Source: Alphaproteobacteria bacterium UBA3635 (lineage in GTDB: Bacteria; Pseudomonadota; Alphaproteobacteria; Rs-D84). From it: a stretch of 64,000 bases of DNA. The DNA lies in the NCBI GenBank assembly GCA_002373935.1, contig DFKW01000006.1, positions 3,149-67,148 on the forward strand. The letters are read 5' to 3'. Shown here one piece after another: positions 2,634 through 53,952 of the stretch (within the stretch, counting starts at the first letter, position 1; each line of letters begins with the position of its first letter). Both the position numbers and the translations under genes were made by a program. The notes beneath the pieces were generated by a model that had not been told where the DNA came from, ran no database searches, and worked only from the letters and a program-made list of their open reading frames with translations.

Positions 2634-3478
2634 TGAAACATATACCGGTTCTTATTAATGCAATTATGCGCGAATTGGGCGATATTCGCGGCCAACGTGT
2701 TTTGGATGCAACGTTTGGCGCGGGTGGATATACGCGTGCGTTTTTGGACGCCGGCGCATCGGTTGTTGCGTTTGATCGTGATCCAAATGTTGTGGCGGAT
2801 GCGGATGCGATAAAATCTGAATTTGGGTCGCGCTTTCGTTTTATTGCAAAACCGTTTTCGGCAATGCGTGAATTAAATGAAAAATTTGATGCGATTGTTT
2901 TTGATTTGGGTATTTCATCGATGCAGATTGATATTCCAACACGCGGTTTTTCTTTTCGGGCGGATGCACCATTGGATATGCGTATGTCGGGTGCGGGTCC
3001 AACGGCGGCGGATTTAATTGCAAACGCAACCGTTGCGGATTTGGCAAAAATTTTGCGCGATTATGGCGATGTGGCGCGTGCAAATGTTTTGGCGCGTGCG
3101 ATAATTAACGCAAAACCACAAACCACATTTGAATTAAAAAATCTGATTTATAATCCGCGGGATGTCGCCCCCGTATTCCAGGCGTTGCGTATTGCGGTGA
3201 ACGACGAAATGGGTGAGTTGCGACGGGCATTGTCGGTGGCACCGGAAATGTTAAATCCGGGTGGCAAATGTTTGGTGGTGACTTTCCATTCAATCGAAGA
3301 CAGAATTGTAAAAAACACTTTTCGCGATTTAACCACGGTACCCGGCAATCCACTGATACCTGTTGCCGCGGATGCACAATATAAATTAATTCGTGCGATA
3401 ACCCCTGATGAAAATGAAACAGAACAAAATCCGCGTTCACGGTCGGCACATTTGCGTGGCGTTCAAAAATCATATTGA
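2633..3478 (+). CDS. rsmH: 16S rRNA (cytosine1402-N4)-methyltransferase
   Basis: 281 aa with the MraW-type SAM motif DATFGAGGYT. The ATG overlaps the dnaE stop by 1 nt. Confidence 0.9.
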   Translation: MKHIPVLINAIMRELGDIRGQRVLDATFGAGGYTRAFLDAGASVVAFDRDPNVVADADAIKSEFGSRFRFIAKPFSAMRELNEKFDAIVFDLGISSMQIDIPTRGFSFRADAPLDMRMSGAGPTAADLIANATVADLAKILRDYGDVARANVLARAIINAKPQTTFELKNLIYNPRDVAPVFQALRIAVNDEMGELRRALSVAPEMLNPGGKCLVVTFHSIEDRIVKNTFRDLTTVPGNPLIPVAADAQYKLIRAITPDENETEQNPRSRSAHLRGVQKSY

Positions 3479-3525
3479 CCGGGGTGCGCAATTTAATGTA
3501 ATCTGAATACAAGACAAGGAAGAAA

Positions 3526-4020
3526 GTGATGAAAAAATTATTGGCATTTTTATTTAGTGCGGGCATAACATCGAATGCGTTGGCAAATCCGGCATGCGCG
3601 GTTTGCACGGTGGCAATTGGTGCGACATTAACAATTTCACGGCGTTTGGGCGTGTGCGACAATGCGGTTGCAATTTGGCTGGGTGCGTTTTTGGTGATAT
3701 TGGGTTATTGGGCAATTAAATGGTTTGATAAACGAAATTGGCACTTTTTCGGTCGCGATGTGGTTTTGATGTTGTTATCGTTTTCTATGATTGGCGGATT
3801 ATACATAAATCAATTGCATTACAGTCCGTGCTATTGGGTCTTGGACGCGTTTTTATTCTGGGCGATTATTGGTGGCGTGGTTTATGTTGTATCACAGAAA
3901 TTCTACGAGTTTATGAAACGGCGTAATAACAATCATGCGCACTTTCCTTTTGAAAAGGTTGTATTGGCGTTGGTGATGTTATTTATTGCCAGTTTCTTGG
4001 TATCAAAATTTGCAATGTAA
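3526..4020 (+). CDS. Polytopic membrane protein, unknown family
   Basis: 164 aa with a signal-like N-terminus and several hydrophobic segments. No family was recognised. Confidence 0.6.
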   Translation: MMKKLLAFLFSAGITSNALANPACAVCTVAIGATLTISRRLGVCDNAVAIWLGAFLVILGYWAIKWFDKRNWHFFGRDVVLMLLSFSMIGGLYINQLHYSPCYWVLDAFLFWAIIGGVVYVVSQKFYEFMKRRNNNHAHFPFEKVVLALVMLFIASFLVSKFAM

Positions 4021-4036
4021 ATAAAGGGATGATGAC

Positions 4037-4657
4037 ATGAAAAAAAATATGAAAAAATTGACAATGGAAGAAATGATTGAAAAGGTTGATGCCGCAAAAA
4101 AGGCAAACCCGTTGGATTTGTCGTCTGACCAGGATTTGTCGATTGCGTTGATGAATTTGATTTCATTGGAAGAACATTTCTTTTTCAGTGGTGCAAAAAC
4201 GAAAAAAACCGGATTTTACGATTTGTTAAATACGGTGCGTTCTATGCGCAAAGAATTGATGGAACGCATTGTTGATAAATCATCCGTCGAAGGTGGCGAG
4301 GTTTGGTGTATTTCAAAACATTTGCTGGCGGCGTCTATGCGTTTGATGGAGGTCGGAACCAAGGCATTGGGTGCCGGAAACAAACGCGACGCGGAACAAA
4401 TGTTTGAACGGGCATACGATTTATATTCCCTGTTTTGGGGATTAAATATGCACTTGATAGATTTGGATGGTGTGCATGAATCTGTGCCGGCGTTTTATGA
4501 TGGGGCGGTTGCGGCATGCAAGATGGATAACCCTAAAAAATCAGGTAAAACAAAAAATGCGGCGGTGACGACGACATCTGGGGCAACGGGTGACGAGTCA
4601 ACGGTAAAAAAACTTGGTAATTGGGTTAAACGCGCGGTCAATTGTTGTATCGAATAA
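4037..4657 (+). CDS. Hypothetical soluble protein, unknown family
   Basis: 206-aa ORF 16 nt after the previous gene, with a Lys-rich N-terminus and a C-terminus ending NCCIE. Confidence 0.55.
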   Translation: MKKNMKKLTMEEMIEKVDAAKKANPLDLSSDQDLSIALMNLISLEEHFFFSGAKTKKTGFYDLLNTVRSMRKELMERIVDKSSVEGGEVWCISKHLLAASMRLMEVGTKALGAGNKRDAEQMFERAYDLYSLFWGLNMHLIDLDGVHESVPAFYDGAVAACKMDNPKKSGKTKNAAVTTTSGATGDESTVKKLGNWVKRAVNCCIE

Positions 4658-4664
4658 AATACTG

Positions 4665-4694
4665 TTGATTTGGTTTTTCAAAAAATGGTATAAT
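4665..4694 (+). promoter_or_regulatory. Sigma-70-type promoter with extended -10
   Basis: TTGATT (4665-4670), 18-nt spacer, TGgTATAAT (-10 at 4689-4694). It lies directly upstream of the 796-aa gene. Confidence 0.55.
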
Positions 4695-4712
4695 AAACCC
4701 AAGAGAGAATGG

Positions 4713-7103
4713 ATGATTAAGCGTTTAAGATATGTTTTCTGTGGTTTGTTTATTGCGTCGATAACGGCGCCGGTGGCGTTTGGTGCCACGCCCGCCGCGC
4801 AACGTACGGCCGTGCCAACCGCGGCACGCGCATCGGGTGCGCCCGCCGCACAACGCACAAAATCGGCAACGACGCGCAATGCGCGTACGATTACAAAACG
4901 CGCGGTCGTCACCCCGAATCGGACGGCAACCACGGTAAATTCTATATCCAGGGCGGGTAATATTATCAGTGATGCCGGCAACGCGATTATTCATCGTGCT
5001 TTTGGCATTTCACGCAGTGCAAAACCGGTCGCAATTTCACGTACGGCCACGGGTACAAATACCGCACGTTCGGCGGCACGTGTTGGTGGTGCATCACGCG
5101 CACGCGCAACCGCGGTATTTAGCGATATTTCAAAATTGGGTGACGGGTATAATCAATGCCGCGATGCATATAATACATGTATGGATCAGTTCTGTGCCGG
5201 CGCAAACGAAACATATCGTCGTTGTTATTGCAGTAATACTTTCCATGATTTCCGCGATCGCGAGGATGCATTGGATGCGGCAACAACTTTATTGGCACAA
5301 TTTGAAAACAACAATTTGAACGCGGTTAATTTGTCGGCCGAAGAAGTAAATGCAATGTACACGGCAACGGCGGGCGAGCAAGCAATTAAAAATGACACAT
5401 CGGGCGCCGCGGAATTGTTAAGCAATATTGATGATTTGTTGTCTGGCAAGAAAAAGGCATCGGACACACAAAACAGTTTAACATCTTTGTCGGGATTGTC
5501 GGTTGATTTTTCGACCGATTTGGGCGACATTTGGGGAACAACATCGACATCATTGTTTGGCGACAATTCTGGGGCCGATTTATCAACCATGGACGGTGTG
5601 GAGTTATACAACAACGCACATAAACAATGTATGCAATTGGTTGGCGAAACATGCGATGCGGGCGCGGTTCGCAACATGGCAAAAAGTGCGTACAGCATTT
5701 TAATCACCCAGGATTGCAACGCATATCAAAAGAAAATTGATGCCAAGGCCGAACAGGTTAAATCGACGGTGCGCACGGCGGAAAAATACCTGCGCGAGGC
5801 ACGATTAGAAGAATATCGTTCACACAATTCGGCGGATGTGAATGCATGTTTGGACCGGGTCGAGGCCGCCCTGACCCAGCCAACGGCATGCGGTGCGGAT
5901 TATGTGAAATGTTTGGATTATTCGGGTGTATATATCAATTCTACATCAGGCGAGCCGATTTATTCCCCGCGTTTGTTCAAATTAAATGAATTGATTGTTT
6001 TGGACGGCACGTCTGCGGATGTGTTGGCACAAAACCCGCAATTTAATCAATTTTTGGATTCAAAACGCGTGTATGCGCGGACCGCATTGGAATCTTGTCG
6101 TGATTTGGCGGACACGGTTTGGGCGGAGTTTAAGCGCAACGCGTTGATTAAAATTTCCCAGGCCCAGGATGAAAAAATCGAAGAAGTGAAAATGTCTTGC
6201 GTTTCGACAATGAAGGATTGTTACGACACGCAAAGTGATGCGTTGAAAAGTTTTGACGACACAACGGCCCAGGCGTCCGGCGCATTGGCGGCCCGTGCAT
6301 CACGCGACATGTGCAGTGATAAAGTTTTGGCTTGCGCGGCGTTGTATGGTGACGAGGACGCTTGTCAAATTGATGCACGGACAAACAAGGTCACTGATAA
6401 AAACGGTAAAAAATGCGGATTGACATCTTTGCGTAACTTTGTTGATACGGTTGACGATGTTCGTATTGCCGAGGGTTGTGGCACGGCGGTTGAAAATTAT
6501 TTGAAACAAATTTGCACACCATCAACAGGCACCGAGGGATATCCGTGGAATTGCCGTTTGCGTGCATTTGGAAATTTGAACGCCAACCACAGTTGGTCAA
6601 GTTCTGCCCAAAATTCCGGCAAAGATTTGGTTAGTATGGTTATAAATTATGCAATCGATAATTGCGGTGTCGGAACAGATGGAAAACTTGAAACACGTTC
6701 GCAAAACGAGGTTGTTCAGCAATTAGAAACACTTCGCGAAGATTTGGGTGATTTGATTGGTGAAAAATGCGAGATGGCCGATGGTATTTGGGTCGATGCG
6801 GGCGACGATGATAACACAGGGTTGTCTGACGGAACAGTCATAGATAGTTTTTATAGTGTGAACTTTGGCAAAAGTCATACCCAGGCACAATCTGATTACG
6901 GCGTTGACACATGGGGTAAATGCATCAGAAACAGTGTCAAGGCGCGTTGCGATGCGGAAAACAAACGCACTGGAAATAACGGGTACGCAACATACGATGC
7001 ATCAACCGGACAATGCAATTTGACAATAGAATATTACAAATATCAATGCGAACAAGTGTTGGGTATTTGGACAGATGATAATAATTGTTATATAGAAAAG
7101 TAA
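4713..7103 (+). CDS. Large secreted Cys-rich protein, unknown family
   Basis: Start trimmed to MIKRLRYVFCGLFIASITAPVAFG (signal peptide). An Ala/Arg/Thr-rich low-complexity region is followed by roughly 28 Cys over ~650 aa. Confidence 0.75.
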   Translation: MIKRLRYVFCGLFIASITAPVAFGATPAAQRTAVPTAARASGAPAAQRTKSATTRNARTITKRAVVTPNRTATTVNSISRAGNIISDAGNAIIHRAFGISRSAKPVAISRTATGTNTARSAARVGGASRARATAVFSDISKLGDGYNQCRDAYNTCMDQFCAGANETYRRCYCSNTFHDFRDREDALDAATTLLAQFENNNLNAVNLSAEEVNAMYTATAGEQAIKNDTSGAAELLSNIDDLLSGKKKASDTQNSLTSLSGLSVDFSTDLGDIWGTTSTSLFGDNSGADLSTMDGVELYNNAHKQCMQLVGETCDAGAVRNMAKSAYSILITQDCNAYQKKIDAKAEQVKSTVRTAEKYLREARLEEYRSHNSADVNACLDRVEAALTQPTACGADYVKCLDYSGVYINSTSGEPIYSPRLFKLNELIVLDGTSADVLAQNPQFNQFLDSKRVYARTALESCRDLADTVWAEFKRNALIKISQAQDEKIEEVKMSCVSTMKDCYDTQSDALKSFDDTTAQASGALAARASRDMCSDKVLACAALYGDEDACQIDARTNKVTDKNGKKCGLTSLRNFVDTVDDVRIAEGCGTAVENYLKQICTPSTGTEGYPWNCRLRAFGNLNANHSWSSSAQNSGKDLVSMVINYAIDNCGVGTDGKLETRSQNEVVQQLETLREDLGDLIGEKCEMADGIWVDAGDDDNTGLSDGTVIDSFYSVNFGKSHTQAQSDYGVDTWGKCIRNSVKARCDAENKRTGNNGYATYDASTGQCNLTIEYYKYQCEQVLGIWTDDNNCYIEK

Positions 7104-7117
7104 AAGGTGTGGGTACG

Positions 7118-8089
7118 ATGAAAATTTTGTTTAAACAAATACATGTTTTTCTGTTTGGTTGTTTTGCATCGTTGCCAGCAATGGCTTATCATACTTTTTA
7201 TTCAAATTCCGCAGAAGAGTGTTATGTTGACACATCGCCAGATGATAGCGATGATTATTTTTGGTATTGTGGTCACCAAACGCAATCTTGTAGAAGCAAC
7301 GGCGAAAATAAAGATGATGGCCATACCTTTTTGTATCACGGAGATTATTTTTTGTGGCCTGATAAAAAAGCAACAAAAACAAACGAGAAAGTTGGTTTGT
7401 GGTCTGATGCTTCAGAACAAAAATACTGGTGTTGTGGTGGTACCAGTAGCAAATCAGGCAGATTTTATAAAGGTGATAATTGGATTACAAAGTTAGAAAC
7501 AATAACCGAAACATTACCGAACGGAAAGTGCACGTGGATTCGTAAAACCAATATTTGCGGACAAATAGATAACCCTGACGATAAATGTACCGCGGCAACT
7601 GGCGAATGCACAACAGGTTTTATATCGCATAACGGTAAATGTGTCGCGGCCTGCCCCGAAGGTCAGGCGTTTGCAAGTGCTACTTCGTCTGCATGTGTAG
7701 AGTGTGCATCGTCATCCACACAAGGAATTAGAAAAAACATTTGTATAAAATGCGAGGCAAACCAATTTTTTGATAAAACAACGTTATCTTGTATTGCGCG
7801 GTCCAGTAAATTGCAAGTTTCTGTTCAGGCATTTAATGATTGTTGGATGTGTGTCACACCGGGCGCAATGTATAATTGTATGAAAACAATATCAACCAGC
7901 GGGACTTTGAGTGACAATTTACAACAAGTTTGTTCTGTGGATGGTAAATCCGGCGATGCGTCTGTGTTTAGATTGCCCGAAACCGGATTTTTAAAATTTA
8001 TGCCCGCGACAACAGTGAACATTCGACAAATGCCGTCGTTGGCGGATTTCCAGGATGCCACGACTGTTTCAAAAATTCCACGCCGGTAA
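7118..8089 (+). CDS. Secreted Cys-rich protein with furin/EGF-like CxxC spacing
   Basis: Start trimmed to MKILFKQIHVFLFGCFASLPAMA (signal peptide). Repeated Cys patterns include CTAATGECTTG, CVAACPEG, CVECASS and CIKCEANQ. Confidence 0.7.
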   Translation: MKILFKQIHVFLFGCFASLPAMAYHTFYSNSAEECYVDTSPDDSDDYFWYCGHQTQSCRSNGENKDDGHTFLYHGDYFLWPDKKATKTNEKVGLWSDASEQKYWCCGGTSSKSGRFYKGDNWITKLETITETLPNGKCTWIRKTNICGQIDNPDDKCTAATGECTTGFISHNGKCVAACPEGQAFASATSSACVECASSSTQGIRKNICIKCEANQFFDKTTLSCIARSSKLQVSVQAFNDCWMCVTPGAMYNCMKTISTSGTLSDNLQQVCSVDGKSGDASVFRLPETGFLKFMPATTVNIRQMPSLADFQDATTVSKIPRR

Positions 8090-8142: not shown

Positions 8143-8601
8143 TTACAACATAATCGTGCCGTCGGGTTGTTGTTCGGTGACCGATACACGATCGCCCTGG
8201 TTCAATGCGGTTAAAATATCCATTACGATTGCACGTTGTTTGTCACTGGATAATTTCCAATACAAATTTATCAGGCGTAATGTTTCCGTTTTGCCCATTG
8301 GGTCATCTTCGCCCTGGTCCGATACGCGACGAGATTTTGTTGCCTTGGTTTCATCCGGCAAATTTCCCGGTAATCCACAAAAGAAAAACGATACAGGCGT
8401 GTCCAATGCGCGTCCGATTTGAAACAAACGCGATGCAGATATCCGGTTCGCCGCAGATTCATATTTTTGAATCTGTTGACACGATACGCCACACAAATCC
8501 CCCAAATCTTTCTGGGACAGGCCAAGCATACTGCGTCGTAATTGCATACGGTGACCAATATGATTATCAACACTGTTACGAATATATTGTTTTCCCGCCA
8601 T
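8143..8601 (-). CDS. XRE-family HTH transcriptional regulator
   Basis: 152 aa with HTH segment LRRSMLGLSQKDLGDLCGVSCQQIQKYESAANRISASRL. Confidence 0.85.
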   Translation of the reverse strand: MAGKQYIRNSVDNHIGHRMQLRRSMLGLSQKDLGDLCGVSCQQIQKYESAANRISASRLFQIGRALDTPVSFFFCGLPGNLPDETKATKSRRVSDQGEDDPMGKTETLRLINLYWKLSSDKQRAIVMDILTALNQGDRVSVTEQQPDGTIML

Positions 8602-10191: not shown

Positions 10192-10716
10192 ATGATTATA
10201 AATAATGGTTTTGAAATAAGTAATGAAAAATTGCATTTTGCAACCCAGGTTATTGCCGAAATGCAAAACGAATTGCCTAAATATATTCATGATGGGCATG
10301 GACCTTTTTTGGCGGCGATTTATCATGATAAAAAACAGATTGCAAAATCTGCAAATTCTGTGGTTATGGACAATTGCAGCAATAATCATGCAGAGATGAA
10401 CGTTATCAGAGAGGTTCAAAACATTTTAAACTCTTATGATTTGTCATCGTTTGATTTAGATTTATATGTGACGGCAGAACCGTGTATGATGTGTTTGGGT
10501 GCAATTATGTGGTCTGGGGTAAAATCCGTGTTTTATGGTGTTCCATCAGATTCAGTTGAAAAAATCACCGGTTTTGACGAAGGTTTTAAACCAAACTGGT
10601 TCCGGAAATTTAATAAACGCGGAATTGCAGTATATGGTAATATAAAAACTGATTTAGGTGAAAATGTTTTGGCAGAGTATGTAAAAAGTGGCGAAATATA
10701 TAAACCTTACAGATAA
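10192..10716 (+). CDS. Cytidine/deoxycytidylate-deaminase-fold nucleoside deaminase
   Basis: HAEMN...PCMMCLGAIMWSG zinc-deaminase motifs. Substrate unknown. Confidence 0.75.
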   Translation: MIINNGFEISNEKLHFATQVIAEMQNELPKYIHDGHGPFLAAIYHDKKQIAKSANSVVMDNCSNNHAEMNVIREVQNILNSYDLSSFDLDLYVTAEPCMMCLGAIMWSGVKSVFYGVPSDSVEKITGFDEGFKPNWFRKFNKRGIAVYGNIKTDLGENVLAEYVKSGEIYKPYR

Positions 10717-10745: not shown

Positions 10746-11204
10746 TTATTTTATACCTTTTGATTTACGGCGGGATTTGAAAAAATCGCGTAATAATTCG
10801 GCGGACGCATCCGCGTATTCGGGCATTTGGCGGACGCATGGTTTCCACAGGTGTTTATCGGTTTCGAAAATGCGTGCGTTTGCGGTTATGCCCCCGCCCT
10901 TTGGGTCGGGTGCCGCGAAATAGATGTTTTTTATGCGCGCAAATGAAATCGCGGTCGCACACATCGCACACGGCTCCAGCGATATATAAATATCACAATC
11001 GTCCAAAAATTTTGTTCCCAGTTTACGACAGGCGTTATTTATCGCGACAATTTCGGCATGTAATGTTGGATTTTGATTTTTTTGCACACGATTTTCGCCA
11101 CGCGCAATAATTTTTCCATCACACACAATTACCGCGCCGATTGGAACATCGTCGTGATTCATCGCTTTGTTTGCCAAAATCATTGCTTGATTCATAAAAT
11201 CCAT
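10746..11204 (-). CDS. tadA: tRNA adenosine(34) deaminase
   Basis: 152 aa with HAEIVAI...PCAMCATAI motifs and TadA-like length. Confidence 0.85.
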   Translation of the reverse strand: MDFMNQAMILANKAMNHDDVPIGAVIVCDGKIIARGENRVQKNQNPTLHAEIVAINNACRKLGTKFLDDCDIYISLEPCAMCATAISFARIKNIYFAAPDPKGGGITANARIFETDKHLWKPCVRQMPEYADASAELLRDFFKSRRKSKGIK

Positions 11205-11826: not shown

Positions 11827-12312
11827 ATGAATCAACTTGTTATATCTGGAACAAACTATAGTATGCTACTTGACGTGAACTGGACGCGTGGCGATAATTT
11901 ATATCAGGTGGACTTTATATATCTGGATCCTTTTTGTAAACCAAGGGGGTTTGATAGTCAAATCTGTAATATACACGGCAATGATATACGAAATATTCAT
12001 ATAGGTGATATTGGTGAATATTTGACAGCACCACAATACAAAAAACCGACATGGAAACAAATTTTTCCCTATTGCGAACACAATATAGAATTAGCAACAC
12101 TGCTTGGCATAGGAAAACCAAATAAAGCAAGGGTTTTTGGTAATAAAATCGGTGAACAAACTATATCATTACGCGATACAGATATTGGATTTCAACGTGG
12201 TGATGATTTATTGATACAGATAGACAACGGTTATCAATACAAGCTTGTTCGCAATATAAATCAAGAATTGTTAAAGTATAAATTGCAACAACAAATGGCA
12301 AAAAGGTTATAA
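11827..12312 (+). CDS. Hypothetical protein (AT-rich gene)
   Basis: ORF 11794..12312 trimmed to MNQLVISG. No family recognised. Visibly more AT-rich than its neighbours. Confidence 0.5.
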   Translation: MNQLVISGTNYSMLLDVNWTRGDNLYQVDFIYLDPFCKPRGFDSQICNIHGNDIRNIHIGDIGEYLTAPQYKKPTWKQIFPYCEHNIELATLLGIGKPNKARVFGNKIGEQTISLRDTDIGFQRGDDLLIQIDNGYQYKLVRNINQELLKYKLQQQMAKRL

Positions 12313-12318
12313 AAATCC

Positions 12319-12347
12319 TTGCTTTTTCGTTAAATTTAGTTCATAAT
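12319..12347 (+). promoter_or_regulatory. Sigma-70-type promoter of rplY
   Basis: TTGCTT, 17-nt spacer, CATAAT, followed by an ~85-nt leader. Confidence 0.5.
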
Positions 12348-12435
12348 ACGCCCTGCACGACACCCTTGGAGGTTGTGCAAAGGTTAACAACCCCACTTCG
12401 CCGAGGCTATGTGGGGCAAGAAAAAGGACAAAAAA

Positions 12436-13053
12436 ATGGCAATTGAATTAAATGCAGAATTTCGTGAAGTTGCTGGCAAGGGGGCCGCACGTGCAATTCG
12501 TAAAAATCAAAATATCCCTGCAGTAATCTATGGTGAAAAAAAGGAACCAACCGCAATCGTGTTGAATATGCGCGATTTTGAAATGTTGTTGAAACAACCG
12601 TCTTTGCGGACAAAATTGTTCCAAATCAAAACACCAAAGGGAACAGAGGACGCTATGTTGATGGATATTCAATATCATCCGGTGTCTGATCGTGTTATTC
12701 ACGTTGATTTCAAACGCATCGATGTTAAATCGCCGGTCGCGGTCAGTGTGCCGTTGGAATTGGCAAATATGGAAACATCACGCGGTTTGAAAATGGGTGG
12801 CGTGTTGAACTTTGCGGTGCGTAAGGTTGCATTGCGTGGTTTGGTTCACGACATGCCGGAAAAAGTCGTTATTGATTTGACAGACCTGAATATCGGTGAT
12901 GTGGTTCACGGAACTGATTTGGTTTTGCCAAAAGGTATTGAATTGGGTCTGCACCAGGCAGAATTGGCGTTCGTCACAATCGGCGGTAAAATGCCAGATG
13001 AAACTGATAATAAACCTGCGGCAGCCGCAGCGGCAGCACCTGCGAAAAAATAA
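12436..13053 (+). CDS. rplY: Ribosomal protein L25 (Ctc form)
   Basis: Start at MAIELNAEFREVAGKGAARAIR. Ala-rich C-terminal tail. Confidence 0.9.
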   Translation: MAIELNAEFREVAGKGAARAIRKNQNIPAVIYGEKKEPTAIVLNMRDFEMLLKQPSLRTKLFQIKTPKGTEDAMLMDIQYHPVSDRVIHVDFKRIDVKSPVAVSVPLELANMETSRGLKMGGVLNFAVRKVALRGLVHDMPEKVVIDLTDLNIGDVVHGTDLVLPKGIELGLHQAELAFVTIGGKMPDETDNKPAAAAAAAPAKK

Positions 13054-26524: not shown

Positions 26525-27760
26525 ATGATTGAAAAACCCGAACCTTTTGTTAAACCAGATATGATTTTCAGTGTGTCTGATGCGTCGGCATTATTGAAAA
26601 ATGTGGTTGAAACCGCGTTCCCAGAAATTCGCGTGCGCGGCGAACTGTCGGGTATTACACGCGCAACATCGGGACATATTTATATGTCTATCAAAGATTC
26701 CGGCGCGGTGATAAATGCTATCATTTGGCGCAGTACGCCGGTGCCGTTCAAATTGGAAGAAGGGACAGAGGTTATAATTACCGGTAAATTTACAACCTAT
26801 CCGGCGCGCAGTAATTATCAATTGATTGTGAACAGTATTGAAATGGCGGGTGTCGGCGCAATATTAAAAATGTTAGAAATGCGCAAACAAAAATTGGCCG
26901 CCGAGGGGTTGTTTGACGCATCGCGCAAAAAACCGTTGCCTCGCCTGCCCCAACGAATTGGTGTCGTCACCAGTCCGACCGGTGCCGCGTTCCAAGATAT
27001 ACAAAACCGCTTGCGCGAACGATTTCCGGTGCATGTATTGTTATACCCGGCAACCGTCCAAGGGGAAACCGCCGCGCATGAGGTTGCCGCCGGCATTGAA
27101 TACTTTAACAAAATGAATAATGTCGATGTGATTATTGTTGCGCGTGGTGGTGGCGCATTGGAAGATTTATTGCCTTTCTCTGAAGAAATTGTTGTGCGTG
27201 CCGCCGCCGCAAGTCATATACCATTGATATCGGGTGTGGGACACGAGCCGGATTGGATGCTGATTGATTTTGCCGCCGATGTGCGCGCGCCAACGCCGAC
27301 GGGTGCCGCCGAAATGGTTGTGCCGACAAAGTTATCCCTGATTCAAGAATTAGACAATCTGTCGCATCGGTTGGACACGGTTTTCGCAACGCGTTTGGTC
27401 GGCATGCGTCAAAGGGTGGAAAATATTTCTGTGAAAAGTCCAAAACAAATTGTTATGGAGTGGACACAACGATTGGATGATGTCGGGCGCACAATTGGTT
27501 TGATTGTTTCAAACAAAATGGCCGTGGCGCGTCAAAAAATTGACACAGTTGCAAATATGCCGAATATTTTAACTAACAAAATGCACATGCTGAATCAAAG
27601 TATGCAACATGTTGGAAATATGCTGAACAGTTTGAGTTATAAAAATGTATTGCGGCGCGGATTTGCCATTGTGCGTGATGAAAACAATAAAATCATCAGT
27701 AATTCTGGTGGTGGCCGCCCGGCAACAATTGAATTTAACGATGGGGTAATAAAATTATGA
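26525..27760 (+). CDS. xseA: Exodeoxyribonuclease VII large subunit
   Basis: 411 aa with N-terminal OB-fold region FSVSDASALLKNVVETAFPEIRVRGELSG. Confidence 0.9.
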   Translation: MIEKPEPFVKPDMIFSVSDASALLKNVVETAFPEIRVRGELSGITRATSGHIYMSIKDSGAVINAIIWRSTPVPFKLEEGTEVIITGKFTTYPARSNYQLIVNSIEMAGVGAILKMLEMRKQKLAAEGLFDASRKKPLPRLPQRIGVVTSPTGAAFQDIQNRLRERFPVHVLLYPATVQGETAAHEVAAGIEYFNKMNNVDVIIVARGGGALEDLLPFSEEIVVRAAAASHIPLISGVGHEPDWMLIDFAADVRAPTPTGAAEMVVPTKLSLIQELDNLSHRLDTVFATRLVGMRQRVENISVKSPKQIVMEWTQRLDDVGRTIGLIVSNKMAVARQKIDTVANMPNILTNKMHMLNQSMQHVGNMLNSLSYKNVLRRGFAIVRDENNKIISNSGGGRPATIEFNDGVIKL

Positions 27761-28149
27761 TTTACACTGGATATTGGGCAAAAATAAAAGAATACGAACA
27801 ACAAAATTTGACCCCAGTTGGTATTTCCGGATGGTCGCCGGATGGGTATGCTGGCAAAACATACAAAAAACTGGCACCGAAATACGCGTGGTGGAAAGAG
27901 TGGCACGATAACAATTTATCTGAACAGTGGTATATAAACAAATATTTTGAAACCGTATTAAATAAACTGAATCCTCGCACGGTTGCGCAAGATCTGCAAC
28001 AAATGGGACAAAATGTTGTTTTATTGTGCTTTGAAACGCCCGATAAATTTTGCCACAGACATTTGGTTGCAACGTGGTTAAACGCATCCAAATTTGCAGA
28101 TGTTCGTGAATATATTTTAAAATCAAATCAAATGCAAATGAATCTGTAA
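27757..28149 (+). CDS. DUF488-like protein
   Basis: 130 aa with VVLLCFE..DKFCHRHLVATWL motif. ATGA overlap with the xseA stop. Confidence 0.6.
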   Translation: MIYTGYWAKIKEYEQQNLTPVGISGWSPDGYAGKTYKKLAPKYAWWKEWHDNNLSEQWYINKYFETVLNKLNPRTVAQDLQQMGQNVVLLCFETPDKFCHRHLVATWLNASKFADVREYILKSNQMQMNL

Positions 28150-28175: not shown

Positions 28176-28210
28176 CAGTTTTCAGAGTACAGAGTGCAGA
28201 GTTCAATTAT
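28176..28210 (+). repeat. Tandem heptamer array (CAGAGTN x5)
   Basis: CAGTTTT CAGAGTA CAGAGTG CAGAGTT CAATTAT. Confidence 0.85.
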
Positions 28211-28238
28211 TGTGTCGGTCGTGGACCGACAACGTTAT

Positions 28239-28325
28239 TTATGTGTTTTGACGGCGGTCAATGCCAACCCACGGTGCAGCAATGCACACAGCAAATCCGG
28301 CGGAATTGATTAAAACAATAGACAT
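28239..28325 (-). pseudogene. Internally deleted, frameshifted remnant of the 72-aa XRE gene
   Basis: Aligns to both ends of 38794..39012 but lacks ~130 bp internally. A 28-codon stub remains behind an intact AGGAGG RBS. Confidence 0.8.
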
Positions 28326-28373
28326 CATCGAACCTCCTGTTTTTATTTATCACCGCCAGGATGGCGGATTCAC

Positions 28374-28445
28374 AACTGCCCCGTCACCCTGACGGGTGCC
28401 ACCCCTTCTTTTTGTGCTGGCGCACAGAAAAGACGGGGAATGTCC
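28374..28445. repeat. 72-nt two-hairpin module (copy 1 of 4)
   Basis: aactgcccc - variable hairpin - cacccc - invariant imperfect hairpin CCCCTTCTTTTTGTGC tggc GCACAGAAAAGACGGGG - aatgtcc. Confidence 0.85.
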
Positions 28446-28537
28446 AGAGATAAAAATCATAGTGCAACAACTGCACTCTGCCTGCGCCCCATAGCCCAAC
28501 GGGCGCCGGGGTGAACTTTGCACTCTGAACTTTGAAT

Positions 28538-28690
28538 AAAAAATACCGCGGAAAAAGCGCGGTTGGAGGCCAGAAAACTACTACAGAGTGTAGTGCCGCT
28601 TATTCAATATATTCGCGACCCTCCAACCAACTGGGTGGAGTTTTCTCTGTACAAGGTTTTTCTGGACCCACATTGGCAACACACCAATGC
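28538..28690 (-). ncRNA. Candidate structured RNA of ~150 nt (copy 1), unknown class
   Basis: Promoter TTGCAA-17-TAAAAT (28725-28697) and terminator ACCGCG/CGCGGT plus U-run (28563-28538). Helices covary with copy 2. Confidence 0.6.
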
Positions 28691-28726
28691 AGATATATTT
28701 TAACCGACAAAGTATAAATTTGCAAA

Positions 28727-38793: not shown

Positions 38794-39012
38794 TTATTTA
38801 TGTGTTTTGACGGCGGTCAATGCCAATCCACGATGCAGCAACGCGCAGAGCAAATCCGGCGGAATTGGTAATCGCCCAATTTCATACAGGTACAAATCGT
38901 GCGACGATATTTTCAAAATTTCCGCCACGGTGGCTTTATTCATATGCAATGATTTACGCGCCCGGCGCAGTTGTTGTCCATAGGCACGCGCATCAATTAA
39001 AACAATAGACAT
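38794..39012 (-). CDS. Small XRE-family HTH protein (72 aa)
   Basis: LRRARKSLHMNKATVAEILKISSHDLYLYEIGR HTH. RBS GGAGGAG. Terminator at 38775-38788. Confidence 0.75.
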   Translation of the reverse strand: MSIVLIDARAYGQQLRRARKSLHMNKATVAEILKISSHDLYLYEIGRLPIPPDLLCALLHRGLALTAVKTHK

Positions 39013-39222
39013 TTCTCTCCTCCATTTTTATTTATCACCGCCAGGATGGCGGATTCACAACTGCCCCGTCACCCTGACGGGTGCCACCCCTTCTTTTTGT
39101 GCTGGCGCACAGAAAAGACGGGGAATGTCCAGAGATAAAAATCATAGTGCAACAACTGCACTCTGCCTGCGCCCCATAGCCCAACGGGCGACGGGGTGAA
39201 CTTTGCACTCTGAACTTTGAAT
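39013..39222 (-). promoter_or_regulatory. Multi-hairpin 5' leader of the XRE gene, containing heptamer blocks and the 72-nt module (39059-39130)
   Basis: Successive hairpins: CCCC..GCCC gtt GGGC..GGGG, AGTGCA/TGCACT, the module hairpins, and CCGCCA/TGGCGG. About 165 nt is identical to 28341-28505. Confidence 0.6.
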
Positions 39223-39375
39223 AAAAAATACCGCGGGAAAAGCGCGGTTGGAGGCAAGAAAAACTACCATAGAGTGTAGCGTCGCTTATTCGAATATTCA
39301 CGACCCTCCAACCAACTGGGTGGAGTTTTCTCTATGCAAGGGTTTTCTTGTCCCACATTGGCAACACACCAATGC
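39223..39375 (-). ncRNA. Candidate structured RNA of ~150 nt (copy 2), unknown class; possibly a cis-acting attenuator
   Basis: Lies between promoter 39410-39382 and terminator 39248-39223. Three helices are supported by compensatory or wobble changes against copy 1. Confidence 0.6.
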
Positions 39376-39381
39376 AGACAT

Positions 39382-39410
39382 ATTTTAACCGATAAAATAT
39401 GATTTTGCAA
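39382..39410 (-). promoter_or_regulatory. Sigma-70-type promoter of the candidate RNA
   Basis: TTGCAA (39410-39405), 17-nt spacer, TAAAAT (39387-39382). Confidence 0.65.
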
Positions 39411-45579: not shown

Positions 45580-45677
45580 AATAGCACACCAATTTCAAAA
45601 GGCAATAAAAAACCTTGCAAAAATAATATATTATGGCAAAATTTGCCCGAGAGAGAGCAACACAAAGGACAAACATA

Positions 45678-46208
45678 ATGTCGAACTCTTTCACATTTGA
45701 TGACAAGTGGAATATCCGCTTTATGCAACAGGCGCAAATAATTTCTACGTGGTCCAAAGACCCCAGTACGCGCGTTGGCTGTATCATCGTGTCCCCTGAC
45801 CGCTTTGTTTTATCCGAAGGTTATAACGGTTTTCCACACGGCATTGCCGATACATACGAGAGATTACATGACCGCGCATTAAAATATCCGCGCGTTGTGC
45901 ATGCGGAAACAAATGCAATTGTTAATGCGGGTCGAAATGGCGCAAAAATCGATGGCGGTATTTTGTTTGTGACCGCGCCCCCTTGCCCAACATGCGCAAA
46001 AATGATTGTCCAGGCCGGTATTCGTGAAATTTTATATATTGATTTAGACAAAACAAAAAAGATTCCGGGTTGGCGCGATGAATTAAATATTTCTTTTGAT
46101 ATGTTCGATGAGGTTGGCATCCCGAACATGGCAATCCCAAGAAAACACCTGTTCACCAAGGCCCAGTTGGACGCAATTAGAAACAAACAAATGATGAACA
46201 CAAAATAA
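45678..46208 (+). CDS. dCMP deaminase (ComEB-like)
   Basis: Start at MSNSFTFDDKW with RBS AAAGGA. VHAETNAI...PCPTCAKMIVQAGI motifs. Confidence 0.85.
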   Translation: MSNSFTFDDKWNIRFMQQAQIISTWSKDPSTRVGCIIVSPDRFVLSEGYNGFPHGIADTYERLHDRALKYPRVVHAETNAIVNAGRNGAKIDGGILFVTAPPCPTCAKMIVQAGIREILYIDLDKTKKIPGWRDELNISFDMFDEVGIPNMAIPRKHLFTKAQLDAIRNKQMMNTK

Positions 46209-48599: not shown

Positions 48600-49478
48600 A
48601 TGAAAAAATTAGTGTCTTTATCGGCTTTGGTCGCGGTATTGGCGGGTTGCGCCATGGGCGGCAACGATGCCAGTATGTACGGTTCGGAATCTTTGGCCGA
48701 AGAAGATTTGGCGGCGGCAGAATTGAACGATTCGTATTTGATGGCGGCGGCACCGAAATATTACATCGGTAACGCGTACAAGGTTGACGATGTTCAATAC
48801 ATCCCGTCCGAGGATTTAACATATAATCAAACCGGTATCGCGGGAATTATTCCGGCGGAATTAAACGGTCAAAAGACAACTAATGGCGAGGTTTTTGACG
48901 CATCGCAAATGGTCGCAACCAGCAAGACATTACCATTGCCGACAATCGCACGTGTCACTAATTTAAGCAACGGTGAATCGGTTGTTGTTCGTGTAAATAA
49001 TCGTGGTCCATTTGTGAACACTCGTATTATGGATTTGTCACCGGCGGCGGCACAAAAGATTGGTATGAATTCCCAAGCAAAAGTCCAGGTCCAGGTTTTA
49101 ACCGAACAATCTATGGCGGTTAAAAATGCAACAATTGGCGTGACAACACCGGACGCAACGGTCACCGACACATCGGTCACCGTCACACCGGTTGCCGAAC
49201 CCGTCCCACAACCACAACCGGCACCGGTTGCGACAACGGGCGATTACACAATTCAGTTGGCGGCATTTTATGCCCAAGACAGTGCGGACGCCATGGCGCA
49301 ACGCATGAAAACATACGGTGACGCGGTCGTTGTTAACGAGGGCGGCATGTATAAAGTTCGCATTGTGAATTTGGATGCCACACGCGCACGCAGTGTTATA
49401 AACGCCCTGCGCACGAACGAAGGGATGGCACCAGGATTGTTGAAAAACGGTCGCTGGGTCAATGCCGACAGCATTTAA
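48600..49478 (+). CDS. rlpA: Septal ring lytic transglycosylase RlpA with SPOR domain
   Basis: Lipobox LAGC, DPBB region (TTNGEVFD...VRVNNRGPF) and a C-terminal SPOR domain. Confidence 0.88.
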   Translation: MKKLVSLSALVAVLAGCAMGGNDASMYGSESLAEEDLAAAELNDSYLMAAAPKYYIGNAYKVDDVQYIPSEDLTYNQTGIAGIIPAELNGQKTTNGEVFDASQMVATSKTLPLPTIARVTNLSNGESVVVRVNNRGPFVNTRIMDLSPAAAQKIGMNSQAKVQVQVLTEQSMAVKNATIGVTTPDATVTDTSVTVTPVAEPVPQPQPAPVATTGDYTIQLAAFYAQDSADAMAQRMKTYGDAVVVNEGGMYKVRIVNLDATRARSVINALRTNEGMAPGLLKNGRWVNADSI

Positions 49479-49525
49479 TATAATTGTTTCTTCTAAAAAA
49501 ATCCGCCCGTTTGGGCGGTTTTTTT

Positions 49526-49560
49526 CAGTGTTCAAAGTGCAGAGTTCAGAGTGCAGTTGA
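49526..49560 (+). repeat. Tandem heptamer array (x5)
   Basis: CAGTGTT CAAAGTG CAGAGTT CAGAGTG CAGTTGA, immediately after the rlpA terminator (49503-49525). Confidence 0.85.
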
Positions 49561-49580
49561 TGAATAATTATTATTTCGGA

Positions 49581-49686
49581 CATTTCCCGTCGCCAATTTT
49601 TACCGAAGCAACGCGAGGATTAAAAATTGAGCATCGCGCCGAATTCCGCCACATAAAAAACACCACGATTTCTCGTGGTGTTTTTT
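49581..49686 (+). ncRNA. Candidate short RNA (~105 nt) ending at a bidirectional terminator
   Basis: Possible promoter TTCAGA-18-TATTAT (49545-49574), internal hairpin CGCGA/TCGCG, and terminator CACCACGA/TCGTGGTG plus T-run (49661-49686). Confidence 0.3.
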
Positions 49687-49786
49687 GATTTTATCTGGCA
49701 AGGCCTTTTTCTGATTGGGAGTTGGTTTCGGGGCCACCAAATAAAATCAAAACTCTAAGTTCCTTTTCCCCAGTGGAGAGGAACTT

Positions 49787-51247
49787 TTACTCCACCACCG
49801 GACCGGCGGTAAAAGTCCCGGTGCCTGCATTGGTATAAAATCTATCGTTGACCAAATCATACATTCCCAACACACCGTCGCTGTTGCGTTTTACAGGAAT
49901 CATATTGCGAACCAAAATGTCATTTTCGTAAATGCTAAATTCGTATACTTGCACTTTATTATTGGTGCTCTCTATCGACGGTCGCCATCTCTGAAAGATA
50001 TAAAAAGGTCGATTATCTGTATCTGGAATCGTTGCATTATTAGTCAATTTCACATCACCGTTCACAGAAAATTCTGTTGCAGATAACGATAATTTGTTTT
50101 TTTCTAGCATATTAACATTCTCTGCATGAAGCCACGTTCCAGCTGGGTCGAATTTGATTTCGGCAGTACTATCGTCCAAAGAATTTATAACAAGTAAAGC
50201 ATCACTAGAAACGCCTGTTGTTCCACGTCCTGAACCAACAATATTTACATTACCCGCACCAGAGTCAACTTTCGCGACAATTTCTATACGTGTTTTTGAT
50301 GTTGGAGAATAATTCGTGTTTATGTAAGCGTTCCCATCAGAACGCAAATATTCCAACTCTGTATAACCCTCGGGCAGGCAATGCGCACTGCTGCAAATCT
50401 CGTACCAATGCGGAACGCCACTCGCATCTTCGACCAACAGGCATTTCTTGCCGGCGGGGCATTTTTCATTGTCGTCAGCAATGTCGTTTGGGCGGGTTTG
50501 TTTGCCCGATTGCAAAGTCGCGATACTCGCCGCCTGAGATATCGTGTTTGACACGACCGTATTCACCGTCGCAACCGCCGCCGCCAACCGTGAGTTCAAA
50601 TCACTAAACTGTGTTTCCACATATTTTGTCGTGGCAATTTTGATTTCTGCAATCGGTCCGGCAATAAACGAACCCGAACCGGCATTGGTATAGAACTGCC
50701 CACCAACCGTATCATACATCCCAATCGCAGAATCACTGTTCCGTTTCGCAGGGATAAAGTTTCCGATTACGCGCCCAGCAGAATCTTTTGCAACAAAATT
50801 ATAAACCTTCTCTTTTGACGGATAGTTGCCACCAACAACCGCGAACAAACCAAAACCAGTATTATTGTGATAGCTGCCTAATGAGTGTTCGTTTTCCAAA
50901 TTTTCGTTAACATATAGCTTTGATTTGCTACCACTAATTACTAATTTTGCATTATAAATTGTGTTTAATGTTACAGTTGTTCTGCCACGGCTCATATTCC
51001 ACCAATATAAGTCACTATCTATACCCATTTGTGCATCAGAACCCCAACCATTCATTTGATACGCGCCAAATAAGCCTGAATACGATAAACGTATTTCAAA
51101 TGATGAGCCGTCTGTACCAAAAATCCCTGTATCAATATATTGGGTTCCTGTACTTTCGATGTATTCCAACTCCGTATACCCCGCCGGCAGCGCCCACGAT
51201 GGAATTGTGAATAATAACCCCAACATCGCACATAAAAGTTTTTTCAT
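49787..51247 (-). CDS. Secreted protein with two lectin/tail-fibre-like repeat domains
   Basis: Start trimmed to MKKLLCAMLGLLFTIPSWA (signal peptide). Internal duplication: LPAGYTELEYIESTGTQYIDTG...FYTNAGSGSFIAGP versus LPEGYTELEYLRSDGNAYINT...FYTNAGTGTFTAGP. Confidence 0.75.
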   Translation of the reverse strand: MKKLLCAMLGLLFTIPSWALPAGYTELEYIESTGTQYIDTGIFGTDGSSFEIRLSYSGLFGAYQMNGWGSDAQMGIDSDLYWWNMSRGRTTVTLNTIYNAKLVISGSKSKLYVNENLENEHSLGSYHNNTGFGLFAVVGGNYPSKEKVYNFVAKDSAGRVIGNFIPAKRNSDSAIGMYDTVGGQFYTNAGSGSFIAGPIAEIKIATTKYVETQFSDLNSRLAAAVATVNTVVSNTISQAASIATLQSGKQTRPNDIADDNEKCPAGKKCLLVEDASGVPHWYEICSSAHCLPEGYTELEYLRSDGNAYINTNYSPTSKTRIEIVAKVDSGAGNVNIVGSGRGTTGVSSDALLVINSLDDSTAEIKFDPAGTWLHAENVNMLEKNKLSLSATEFSVNGDVKLTNNATIPDTDNRPFYIFQRWRPSIESTNNKVQVYEFSIYENDILVRNMIPVKRNSDGVLGMYDLVNDRFYTNAGTGTFTAGPVVE

Positions 51248-51650
51248 TTCTTTCTCCCCGTTCTTTTGGTTCTGCGTTTTTTTGTGAAAAATTTTCACAA
51301 AAAAAGCGCCATCAACAGGAAGATGCGCGGCAGGGGTGTTAGAAAAATCAGTACAACAATGACCCCATATGCATTACTGCATACGGCACCCACGCCAAAC
51401 CGTAAACGGGTCGATAGCGGGTTTTTTATACAGGGGTAAAATTCACATTTCTATATGGTGAAAAAAATTTTTCCTAAAAATTCCAACACCGAAATAAAAA
51501 TGTCGGTGCAAAATATGACGGCAACAAACACAGCCCCGCCGAATCGAATCGGGCGAGCATGGGAGAGTTACGATGCAAATCTTGCACCGGTTGTACTGGA
51601 CTTTTCTAAGGTCCTTGTCCGAAATCAACTCCCTGGTGATTTCTGATGTC

Positions 51651-51680
51651 ATTATAGAAAATGGAATTTATTTATTGCAA
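51651..51680 (-). promoter_or_regulatory. Near-consensus sigma-70 promoter reading toward the lectin-like gene
   Basis: TTGCAA (51680-51675), 18-nt spacer, TATAAT (51656-51651), about 400 nt upstream of the start codon. Confidence 0.6.
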
Positions 51681-51691
51681 GAATATTTTTG

Positions 51692-51862
51692 AACTGCCCC
51701 ACCGGCTACGCCGGTCCCCCCCCTTCTTTTTGTGCTGGCGCACAGAAAAGACGGGGAATATCCAGAGTCGGAGGTGCAATAAAATTTTTGAACTGCCCCG
51801 TCCCGCTTTCGCGGTCCACCCCTTCTTTTTGTGCTGGCGCACAGAAAAGACGGGGAATATCC
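51692..51862. repeat. Two tandem copies of the 72-nt two-hairpin module (51692-51763, 51791-51862; 99-nt period)
   Basis: Same consensus as 28374-28445 and 39059-39130. The first hairpin differs in each copy but stays paired. Confidence 0.9.
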
Positions 51863-51883
51863 GATAATAAATAATTATTTTCT

Positions 51884-51918
51884 ATAACTGAACTCTGCAC
51901 TCTGAAAACTGAAAACTA
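51884..51918 (-). repeat. Tandem heptamer array (x5)
   Basis: Read on the minus strand: TAGTTTT CAGTTTT CAGAGTG CAGAGTT CAGTTAT. It abuts the ligA terminator (51921-51935). Confidence 0.85.
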
Positions 51919-51936
51919 AAAATAATCCCGACGGGA

Positions 51937-53952
<2,016 letters not shown>

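Follow-up and report, generated by a model that had tools for sequence, protein, structure and literature searches.

Positions 49526-51918 of the 64,000-nt stretch of contig DFKW01000006.1 analysed here (Alphaproteobacteria bacterium UBA3635, assembly GCA_002373935.1; the whole stretch is referred to as the window) lie between the genes rlpA and ligA and carry a gene for a secreted, lectin-like protein of 486 aa (P486), enclosed by two facing arms of similar sequence. A preliminary description had taken this segment for a mobile cassette delimited by terminal inverted repeats. We consider it likely that the locus instead combines a hypervariable lectin-gene unit with two independently acquired copies of a dispersed mosaic repeat and does not represent a transposon with terminal inverted repeats at its ends. 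The evidence that carries this reading comes from strains of the same species and from a sister species, in which the gene unit occupies the same site without these arms. By LigA-based loci, the window belongs to Candidatus Enterousia, in the alphaproteobacterial order Rs-D84, and to a reduced genome of ~0.85 Mb; Ca. Enterousia, like its order, comprises uncultured inhabitants of the gut with small genomes (~0.75-1.0 Mb; under 1 Mb as a rule; PMC12306168). Comparison loci are designated by L numbers.

Two arms facing each other across the lectin-like gene

The imperfect inverted repeat proposed for the two ends of the segment is real. In a global alignment, 49526-49592 and the reverse complement of 51848-51918 are identical in 55 of 72 columns with a score of 33, whereas the controls scored at most 7 (2000 shuffles) and 12 (5000 segments drawn at random from the window); a repeat search delimits an ungapped core of 28 nt (49522-49549/51888-51915) that is 93% complementary. 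Each arm consists of about five heptamers of the CARAGTK type (H), an AT-rich spacer starting CAGTTGATG/CAGTTATAG and then CGGAYATTYCCCGTC. The five CAGNNNN heptamers attributed to each arm are thus present in number but less regular in sequence, since the left arm (CAGTGTT CAAAGTG CAGAGTT CAGAGTG CAGTTGA) includes CAAAGTG and the right arm (TAGTTTT CAGTTTT CAGAGTG CAGAGTT CAGTTAT) includes TAGTTTT. Both arms start 0-1 nt past the T-tail of an intrinsic terminator (hairpins 49503-49518 and 51918-51944), in line with the placement first described, and the same holds for all five H arrays of the window (p ~1.5e-10). The end motif also recurs where it had been reported, at 28176-28206, 28514-28534 and 39199-39219, and the 17-mer of the motif has 10 matches against 0.03 expected. 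That the two ends resemble each other by chance, as AT-rich, low-complexity sequence beside terminators, has a negligible probability: both arms do contain a spacer rich in AT and lie next to terminator tails rich in A/T, but the alignment score and the 17-mer count far exceed their controls, and the motif is conserved in other genomes and metagenomes.

The two arms differ in what they are made of. On the left, a unit of 157 nt (49496-49652, plus strand), which is a strain-specific insertion, comprises the terminator hairpin T2 (49503-49518), the H array (49526-49560, plus strand, 0 nt past the terminator tail), the AT spacer and, at 49577-49641 (plus strand), the 5' end of a hairpin module termed M (GGACATTTCCCGTC; its first 15 nt) fused to the first ~50 nt of a further module, X. 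This X fragment is 96% identical to the copy in L096 and 86% to that in L107. The left arm runs on into sequence typical of loci with XRE-like regulator genes rather than into the cassette. The short terminated RNA once proposed (49593-49690) resolves into the X fragment and the gene's own bidirectional terminator, and nothing points to a separate RNA. The right arm (51864-51918, minus strand) holds an H array (51888-51918) and the AT spacer; inward of it, two tandem M modules with a 99-nt period, a distal copy at 51792-51863 and a promoter-proximal copy with two hairpins at 51693-51764 (both on the minus strand), stand upstream of the promoter of the P486 gene. Outward of it lies the ligA-proximal bidirectional terminator (51918-51944), which is 97% conserved in L111 and absent in L046; the right arm itself is not at that position in either. 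The 486-aa gene, its leader and the two modules between the arms were found as described.

Empty and occupied sites in related genomes

The gap between ligA and rlpA is empty in four related species, L020 (LigA 92%), L003 (LigA 83%), L050 (LigA 84%) and L114 (RlpA 89%); there it measures 65-80 bp and contains one common bidirectional terminator, with murJ-rlpA and ligA convergent in all four. Relative to part of the genus, the gene segment is therefore an insertion, as the preliminary description had it. The site is occupied in the window, in two conspecific metagenome-assembled genomes (MAGs), L111 (KS318-84, rlpA 98.6% identical at the nucleotide level) and L113 (RlpA 98%), and in a sister species, L046 (LigA 92%).

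These occupied sites bear on how the arms are to be read. L111 matches the window in ligA (97% nucleotide identity), over the 119 nt of the 3' untranslated region (3'UTR) and terminator (49653-49771, 100%) and over the promoter, leader and signal-peptide region (51159-51690, 92.6%), and a paralog of the P486 gene occupies the site, although neither arm stands at its position. The left unit, 49496-49652, is missing as a single clean block in both L111 and L113, with the junction CTA|...|ATAAAAAAC falling within the inner terminator's A-tract; the insertion is flanked by AAAAAA(A)/ATAAAAAA, which is indistinguishable from that A-tract. On the ligA side of L111 the terminator is kept and the adjacent H array is gone, and an H array lies, in reversed orientation, beside a hairpin just upstream of the promoter, ~400 nt or less from other modules. 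L046 has the promoter, the leader, a divergent paralog, the 3'UTR stem-loop and the inner terminator, and has neither H arrays nor a separate ligA terminator. By position, the inner bidirectional intrinsic terminator of the 486-aa gene (49654-49687) is homologous to the one terminator present at the empty sites. L111 has it unchanged (100% identity), and in L046 its identity is 87%, about that of the flanking genes, with one compensatory change in the stem.

A unitary transposon would have the same two ends wherever its cargo occurs, and this fails in L046, L111 and L113, which carry the cassette without these arms. The preliminary description had itself named relatives of this kind, with the gene but not the repeats around it, as grounds for rejecting its model. 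The view of the arms as the ends of one mobile cassette is accordingly not borne out by the relatives, L046 in particular, and since the arms are absent around occupied sites, the inverted repeat would represent two separately acquired repeat copies that face each other by chance. A search of the flanks found no target-site duplication around the 2.39-kb segment, and a duplicated terminator hairpin was ruled out in that role because the flanking hairpins are unrelated in sequence. Among the 66 open reading frames (ORFs) of the window, Pfam gave no match to a recombinase, transposase, integrase, invertase, reverse transcriptase or Y1_Tnp, which agrees with the earlier remark that no recombinase is encoded there. 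We regard as improbable the hypothesis of one mobile cassette with ~70-bp terminal inverted repeats, moved by a recombinase in trans and targeted beside terminators. The statistically significant inverted repeat, the site empty in four relatives, the strict adjacency of the window's H arrays to terminators and the inverted H pairs that bound variable content elsewhere, both compact and cargo-bearing, would all fit it; the occupied sites without arms, the lack of a target-site duplication and of a recombinase among the window ORFs, and the left arm, which by itself is a 157-nt indel with its own terminator hairpin and continues as an X fragment of the XRE-locus type, do not.

The lectin-like protein and the variation of its gene

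P486 is encoded at 49787-51247 on the minus strand. Its predicted architecture comprises a signal peptide, a LamG/concanavalin A (ConA)-like jelly roll, a long helix with a Cys-containing linker and a second jelly roll; the AlphaFold model has a mean predicted local distance difference test (pLDDT) score of 77, with the C-terminal domain mostly above 90. The top Foldseek matches are laminin LG4-5, neurexin LNS, Vibrio cholerae sialidase and ConA-like phage proteins (E-values 1e-7 to 2e-13), and among viral models ConA-like/LamG phage proteins were recovered, the best with 28% identity over 196 residues. By its modelled jelly-roll fold the protein belongs to the LamG/concanavalin A-like lectin superfamily. 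P486 matched no Pfam or PHROG family. The protein family to which it belongs has 2106 hits, no Pfam model and several paralogs per genome.

The protein at the same site in L111 (P0018) has 39% amino acid identity to P486: the signal peptide, the motif LPxGYTELEYI, the linker and the C-terminal tail are conserved, and the cores of the jelly rolls are unalignable. The nearest relative of P486 in L111 is another protein, P0002 (63%), encoded at a different locus adjoining lgt. An ORF with 39% amino acid identity between flanks that are 97-100% identical points to recombination between the conserved edges as the way in which the ORF body was exchanged, and we infer that homologous recombination or gene conversion brought about this exchange within one species.

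A diversity-generating retroelement target was rejected as a source of the variation, as neither a template/variable repeat, sought between leader and ORF and between intergenic regions and ORF, nor a reverse transcriptase was found in the window. In L085, a more distant relative, a gene for a Hin-type resolvase/invertase adjoins one lectin-like paralog (312-959, minus strand, and 1165-2721, plus strand), and a gene for a XerC/D-type integrase adjoins another (12082-12993, minus strand); the two provide a lead for a recombinase acting in trans.

Promoter, leader RNA and 3'UTR

The gene is preceded by a strong, near-consensus promoter of the sigma-70 type, TTGCAA-18 nt-TATAAT (51651-51680, minus strand), which recurs together with the start of the leader in L083, L084, L090, L094, L100, L046 and L111. 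Downstream of it lies a structured leader RNA of ~340-350 nt (51299-51648, minus strand) that ends in a terminator-like hairpin and T-run, in the manner of an attenuator. RNAalifold, applied to eight loci over ~340 nt, predicts 76 pairs, of which 23 show compensatory changes; among the predicted elements are a long-range helix and the terminal hairpin followed by the T-run. The other seven leaders lie at 8682-9030 in L111, 3405-3745 in L083, 3193-3549 in L084, 2251-2598 in L090, 1574-1908 in L094, 3263-3605 in L100 and 10113-10470 in L046. Scans with Rfam, at gathering thresholds for the whole window and at E-value thresholds for 49400-52000, gave no family match for the leader and returned just one tRNA plus sub-threshold matches driven by terminators. 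The conserved ~340-nt leader may be a new cis-regulatory leader, or a small RNA, of the lectin-like gene family. Between the attenuator and the ribosome-binding site there is a perfect 14-nt palindrome (TTTTTTTGTGAAAA T TTTTCACAAAAAAA; 51277-51305), which is kept in L111.

A stem-loop in the 3'UTR (49683-49752, minus strand) is conserved in L046 and L111, and 15 nt of its loop (49717-49731) are complementary to leader positions 51619-51633 (GGGAGTTGATTTCGG). In most loci (L083, 3420/3765; L090, L094, L100) the partner of the 15-nt leader segment is found ~345 nt downstream, just past the attenuator; in the window, L046 (10133/12039) and L111 it lies past the ORF, in the loop of the 3'UTR hairpin. 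The two arms of the pair do not covary, the first being nearly invariant and the second changing without compensation, and the pair may serve either for RNA pairing or as a recombination handle.

Such nested inverted repeats raise the question of phase variation, in which a DNA invertase acting on the H arrays or on the 15-nt arms would flip the gene or its leader. The two inverted-repeat pairs nested around the gene, the opposite orientation of the H array upstream of the L111 promoter and the Hin-type gene beside a paralog in L085 are compatible with this idea, to which we nonetheless assign a very low probability. All eight leaders are collinear with their own promoters, every contig with the exact locus has the same orientation, the window ORFs include no invertase, and a flip from H to H would move the promoter and the gene jointly and therefore would not switch expression. 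The locus was accordingly rejected as an invertible switch (inverton).

A dispersed family of mosaic repeats

H, M, X and a hairpin block termed blk constitute a dispersed mosaic repeat family similar in kind to miniature inverted-repeat transposable elements (MITEs), BOX and repetitive extragenic palindromic (REP) elements, whose mobility is read from indels only. As in MITEs, short non-coding elements are present in many copies: the window holds five H arrays and five M copies (one of them partial) in 64 kb, more are found on L084, another scaffold from the window's own sample, and a pattern scan for the M core retrieved 21 metagenome contigs. Compact units likewise have terminal inverted repeats, namely a palindromic H-AT-M-AT'-H' unit of ~220 bp between two genes in L087 and inverted-H units of ~300 bp in L103 and L083 and ~105 bp in L101. 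Close relatives differ by insertions, both in the left unit (L111/L113) and in blk, X and the number of heptamers (L107). A parent transposase with the same ends was absent from the 66 window ORFs searched with Pfam. The M core had no match in IMG/VR viral contigs, and the right arm with its modules had none by blastn against plasmids and phages, so a phage or plasmid origin is unsupported.

M has the form GGAYATT-CCCCGTCTTTTCT-[apical stem-loop]-AAAAAGAAGGGG-[second stem-loop]-GACGGGGCAGTT, with the ends CCCCGTC/GACGGGG, and folds as two hairpins (z-scores -1.0 to -3.6); its 41-nt core stands at 28405, 39090, 51723 and 51822. Hairpin 1 was not alignable in structural register by MAFFT, and its stems were tabulated by folding every variant: 11 of 13 variants hold an apical stem of 4-5 bp, in seven different sequences (GCGC/GCGC, GTGC/GCAC, TGC/GCA, GCCC/GGGC, AGCC/GGCT, ACCC/GGGT and CGC/GCG). 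Hairpin 2 varies likewise, and compensatory changes preserve the hairpins. The M copies of the window have one apex in common and another lineage has a different common apex, which fits recent spread or homogenisation within a genome; the family as a whole is uniform inside a lineage and diverges from one lineage to another. X is a block of 116 nt that lies inside M in L107 and beside an XRE gene in L096. The block blk (CCCCGNCGCCCGTTGGGCTATGGGGCGCAGGC) is a 32-nt hairpin that always lies inside an H array, between ...TTCA and CAGAGT..., flanked by CA/CA (inserted at CA|CA); it occurs in the window at 28480-28511 and 39165-39196, in L084 at 3597-3628 and 6884-6915, and also in L096 and L097. 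A shorter variant of M (CCCCTTCTTT...AAAGAAGGGG) combines with M, X and blk, and the AT spacer of the repeat ends in CARTTGATG.

The association with terminators extends beyond the window, with ~16 of 25 H arrays coming right after a hairpin and T-run; the earlier statement that several loci share the end motif and that it is tightly tied to terminators is upheld in both parts. Inverted H pairs enclose from ~105 bp to 2.4 kb, and the family is also found without cargo. Both flanks of a 701-aa paralog on L084 are made of the same pieces in both orientations, in the order terminator-H-AT-M-promoter-leader on one side and, on the other, H with the 32-nt blk, M, the shorter M variant and an inverted AT-H by a terminator. 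An uptake-signal sequence was ruled out, as the heptamer motif is confined to arrays and not dispersed.

A second inverted-H unit of 358 bp (28176-28534), on the recN side of the window, encloses a degenerate XRE remnant, an M copy (28374-28446, minus strand) and blk (28480-28511, minus strand). Compared with its counterpart in L107, a conspecific strain, the window's unit has blk and four heptamers instead of three, and lacks a 116-nt X located inside M right after CCCCGTC. L107 has no blk in its orthologous array, and blk looks like a nested mini-insertion. L108, a relative with a RecN identity of 90%, lacks the putative small RNA gene (28540-28715 in the window) together with the H unit and the DUF488 gene; recN and xseA are there 62 bp apart (4653-4715). 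In the window the DUF488 gene (27757-28149) overlaps the end of xseA by 4 nt. At the third locus (39059-39219, minus strand), an H array (39199-39219), blk (39165-39196) and M (39059-39131) lie upstream of a gene for a 72-aa XRE-like helix-turn-helix (HTH) protein (38794-39012, minus strand; HTH_31, E=9e-5, under the Pfam cut-off), whose internally deleted and frameshifted remnant is the one at 28239-28328 (minus strand). Both loci also contain a putative small RNA of ~170 nt, in two copies that are 90% identical (28540-28715 and 39225-39400, minus strand), each with a TTGCAA-17-TAAAAT promoter and its own terminator and followed by H-blk-M and the XRE-like gene. Homologs were found in L107, L103, L096 and L110, with weaker ones in L019, L023 and L041, and there was no Rfam family match.

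The position of the modules near promoters suggests another reading, which we hold to be unlikely: H and M would be functional cis-elements (operator- or UP-like arrays, insulators past terminators, or transcribed 5' modules) of a regulon of the XRE-like regulators and the lectin family. M stands directly upstream of, and codirectional with, the promoters of the XRE gene and the P486 gene in the window, and likewise in L084, L089 and L094; the H/AT region holds promoter-like hexamers (TTCAGA-18-TATTAT); covariation keeps the hairpins; and the motif co-occurs with a gene for an HTH protein. Speaking against it, M points either way with respect to the nearest promoter and is also found 3' of genes, units come and go between conspecific strains while the neighbouring genes are unchanged, they are absent in the sister species, and the modules are nested and truncated in the manner of junk insertions.

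A model of the locus

From the observed anatomy, polymorphisms, structure covariation and terminator association, a scenario can be drawn for the hypervariable unit and its two repeats. The core expression unit spans ~2.0 kb (51680 to 49654, minus strand) and includes the promoter, the attenuator-tipped leader, the ribosome-binding site with the lectin-like gene, the 3'UTR stem-loop and the terminator; part of the Ca. Enterousia lineages have it in the ligA/rlpA gap and the rest lack it. Among strains of a single species the ORF body would be swapped while the conserved edges stay, with many paralogs or the DNA of other strains as possible partners; the promoter, leader and signal peptide would supply the 5' homology, the linker an internal one, and the 3'UTR and terminator the 3' homology. 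The repeat, which consists of a terminator tail, tandem CARAGTK heptamers, the AT spacer and the two-hairpin M, would be present in two independently acquired copies facing each other across the unit, the right one as the region upstream of the promoter and the left one as the 157-nt insertion in the A-tract of the gene's terminator. Its mobilisation may be due to an enzyme acting in trans and encoded outside the window, or to illegitimate recombination mediated by hairpins or A/T-tracts.

Several points weigh against this scenario. No transposase or recombinase was identified by Pfam among the window ORFs, so the mobility of the repeats is deduced from indels, and clear target-site duplications were found neither for the 157-nt insertion nor for the 2.39-kb unit. 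Deletion between A-tracts could equally give the 157-nt polymorphism, the ORF difference might stem from rapid diversifying selection or differential loss of paralogs, and H and M, often just upstream of promoters, could be regulatory sequences kept by selection. All comparison sequences come from MAGs or metagenome contigs, and such assemblies are broken at repeats and potentially chimeric.

A bolder version of the scenario appears possible, though rather doubtful: the H-AT-M units might be foldback-type non-autonomous elements of an undescribed kind that home to the A/T tracts of terminators and, together with the handles in the leader and 3'UTR, shuffle and re-target the lectin family, with the enzyme encoded elsewhere in the ~0.85-Mb genome.

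A genome of less than 1 Mb nevertheless keeps secreted lectin-like proteins in a very large family that changes fast, each member driven by a conserved structured leader RNA, and its intergenic space is populated by lineage-specific mosaic repeats that differ between strains. The locus offers a tangible example, open to test, of how recombination may vary the surface of a host-associated symbiont. Heptamer arrays flush with terminators may point to an undescribed insertion mechanism, and the repeats, which explain contig breaks in the MAGs of this group, can be used as strain markers. We advise against upholding the specific interpretation of the segment as a transposon delimited by terminal inverted repeats. 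No earlier description could be found, for this uncultured group, of the repeat family, of its placement flush with terminators or of the structured leader.

Other genes of the window

In otherwise syntenic DNA, L111 has a 241-aa DCD-family (PF22769) gene at 2887-3612 in place of the 191-aa dCMP/cytidine deaminase-family gene at 45633-46208 (plus strand) of the window, an apparent non-orthologous replacement; two further deaminase-like genes of the window lie at 10192-10716 and 10746-11204. Four consecutive ORFs (164, 206, 829 and 334 aa; 3526-8089, plus strand) are without a Pfam match, and beside them a 152-aa HTH_3 (XRE) gene (8143-8601, minus strand) is divergently oriented.

Comparison with known systems

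Membership in any specific repeat or locus family is not established, and the likenesses described here concern architecture and behaviour. An integron cassette with its attC site (RYYYAAC...GTTRRRY) was rejected, as the modules end in CCCCGTC/GACGGGG, the ORF comes with a promoter of its own, the copies are scattered and no integrase was found among the window ORFs. For the gene, the closest parallels are the variable surface-protein loci driven by gene conversion, such as msp2/p44 of Anaplasma and pilE/pilS of Neisseria. The conserved 5' and 3' flanks around a hypervariable coding centre, the large paralog family and the radical differences between near-identical genomes are common to these systems and to the present locus; unlike there, the paralogs here look complete, each with a promoter and a leader of its own, no silent donor cassettes were found, and any switching within a strain would be hypothetical.

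For the repeats, the eukaryotic foldback (FB) transposons have long inverted termini made of short tandem repeats in variable number, with a centre that may hold no cargo or as much as several kb of it. The H arrays, as inverted ends of tandem repeats around a variable centre, recall them as an analogy of architecture only, FB transposons being eukaryotic and of different enzymology. REP elements, bacterial interspersed mosaic elements (BIMEs) and REPINs are extragenic mosaics of GC-rich hairpins that are mobilised by REP-associated tyrosine transposases (RAYTs). M, the short M variant, X and blk are likewise extragenic, GC-rich imperfect palindromes arranged in mosaics. They share with REP/BIME elements (reviewed in PMC3184786) the frequent position 3' of genes and near terminators, the compensated stems and the homogeneity within a genome; M, at ~72-100 nt with two hairpins and the ends CCCCGTC/GACGGGG, is larger than a REP, nothing in REP elements corresponds to the heptamer arrays, and no RAYT was detected, as judged from the lack of a Y1_Tnp match among the window ORFs.

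The pneumococcal BOX element, modular in the form boxA-boxB(n)-boxC and grouped with RUP and SPRITE (PMC3049150), is also short, non-coding, intergenic and species-restricted and has no transposase of its own, and it resembles the present family in the variable number of internal units, the extensive secondary structure and the presence or absence in strains. It differs in having an internal 45-nt boxB, whereas here a 7-nt tandem array forms the inverted end, flush with terminator tails, around a two-hairpin core with covarying apices, and the two have no sequence similarity. In BrickBuilt, a minisatellite inside a MITE of Porphyromonas gingivalis with promoter activity (PMC4596501), a small 'leader' and 'tail' with short inverted ends enclose tandem units of 23 nt, while the heptamers of the present family form long inverted arms around a hairpin module; the host phylum is another one and there is no sequence similarity. 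What BrickBuilt and the present repeats have in common is the intergenic location, the tandem short repeats of variable copy number and the promoter-like sequences.

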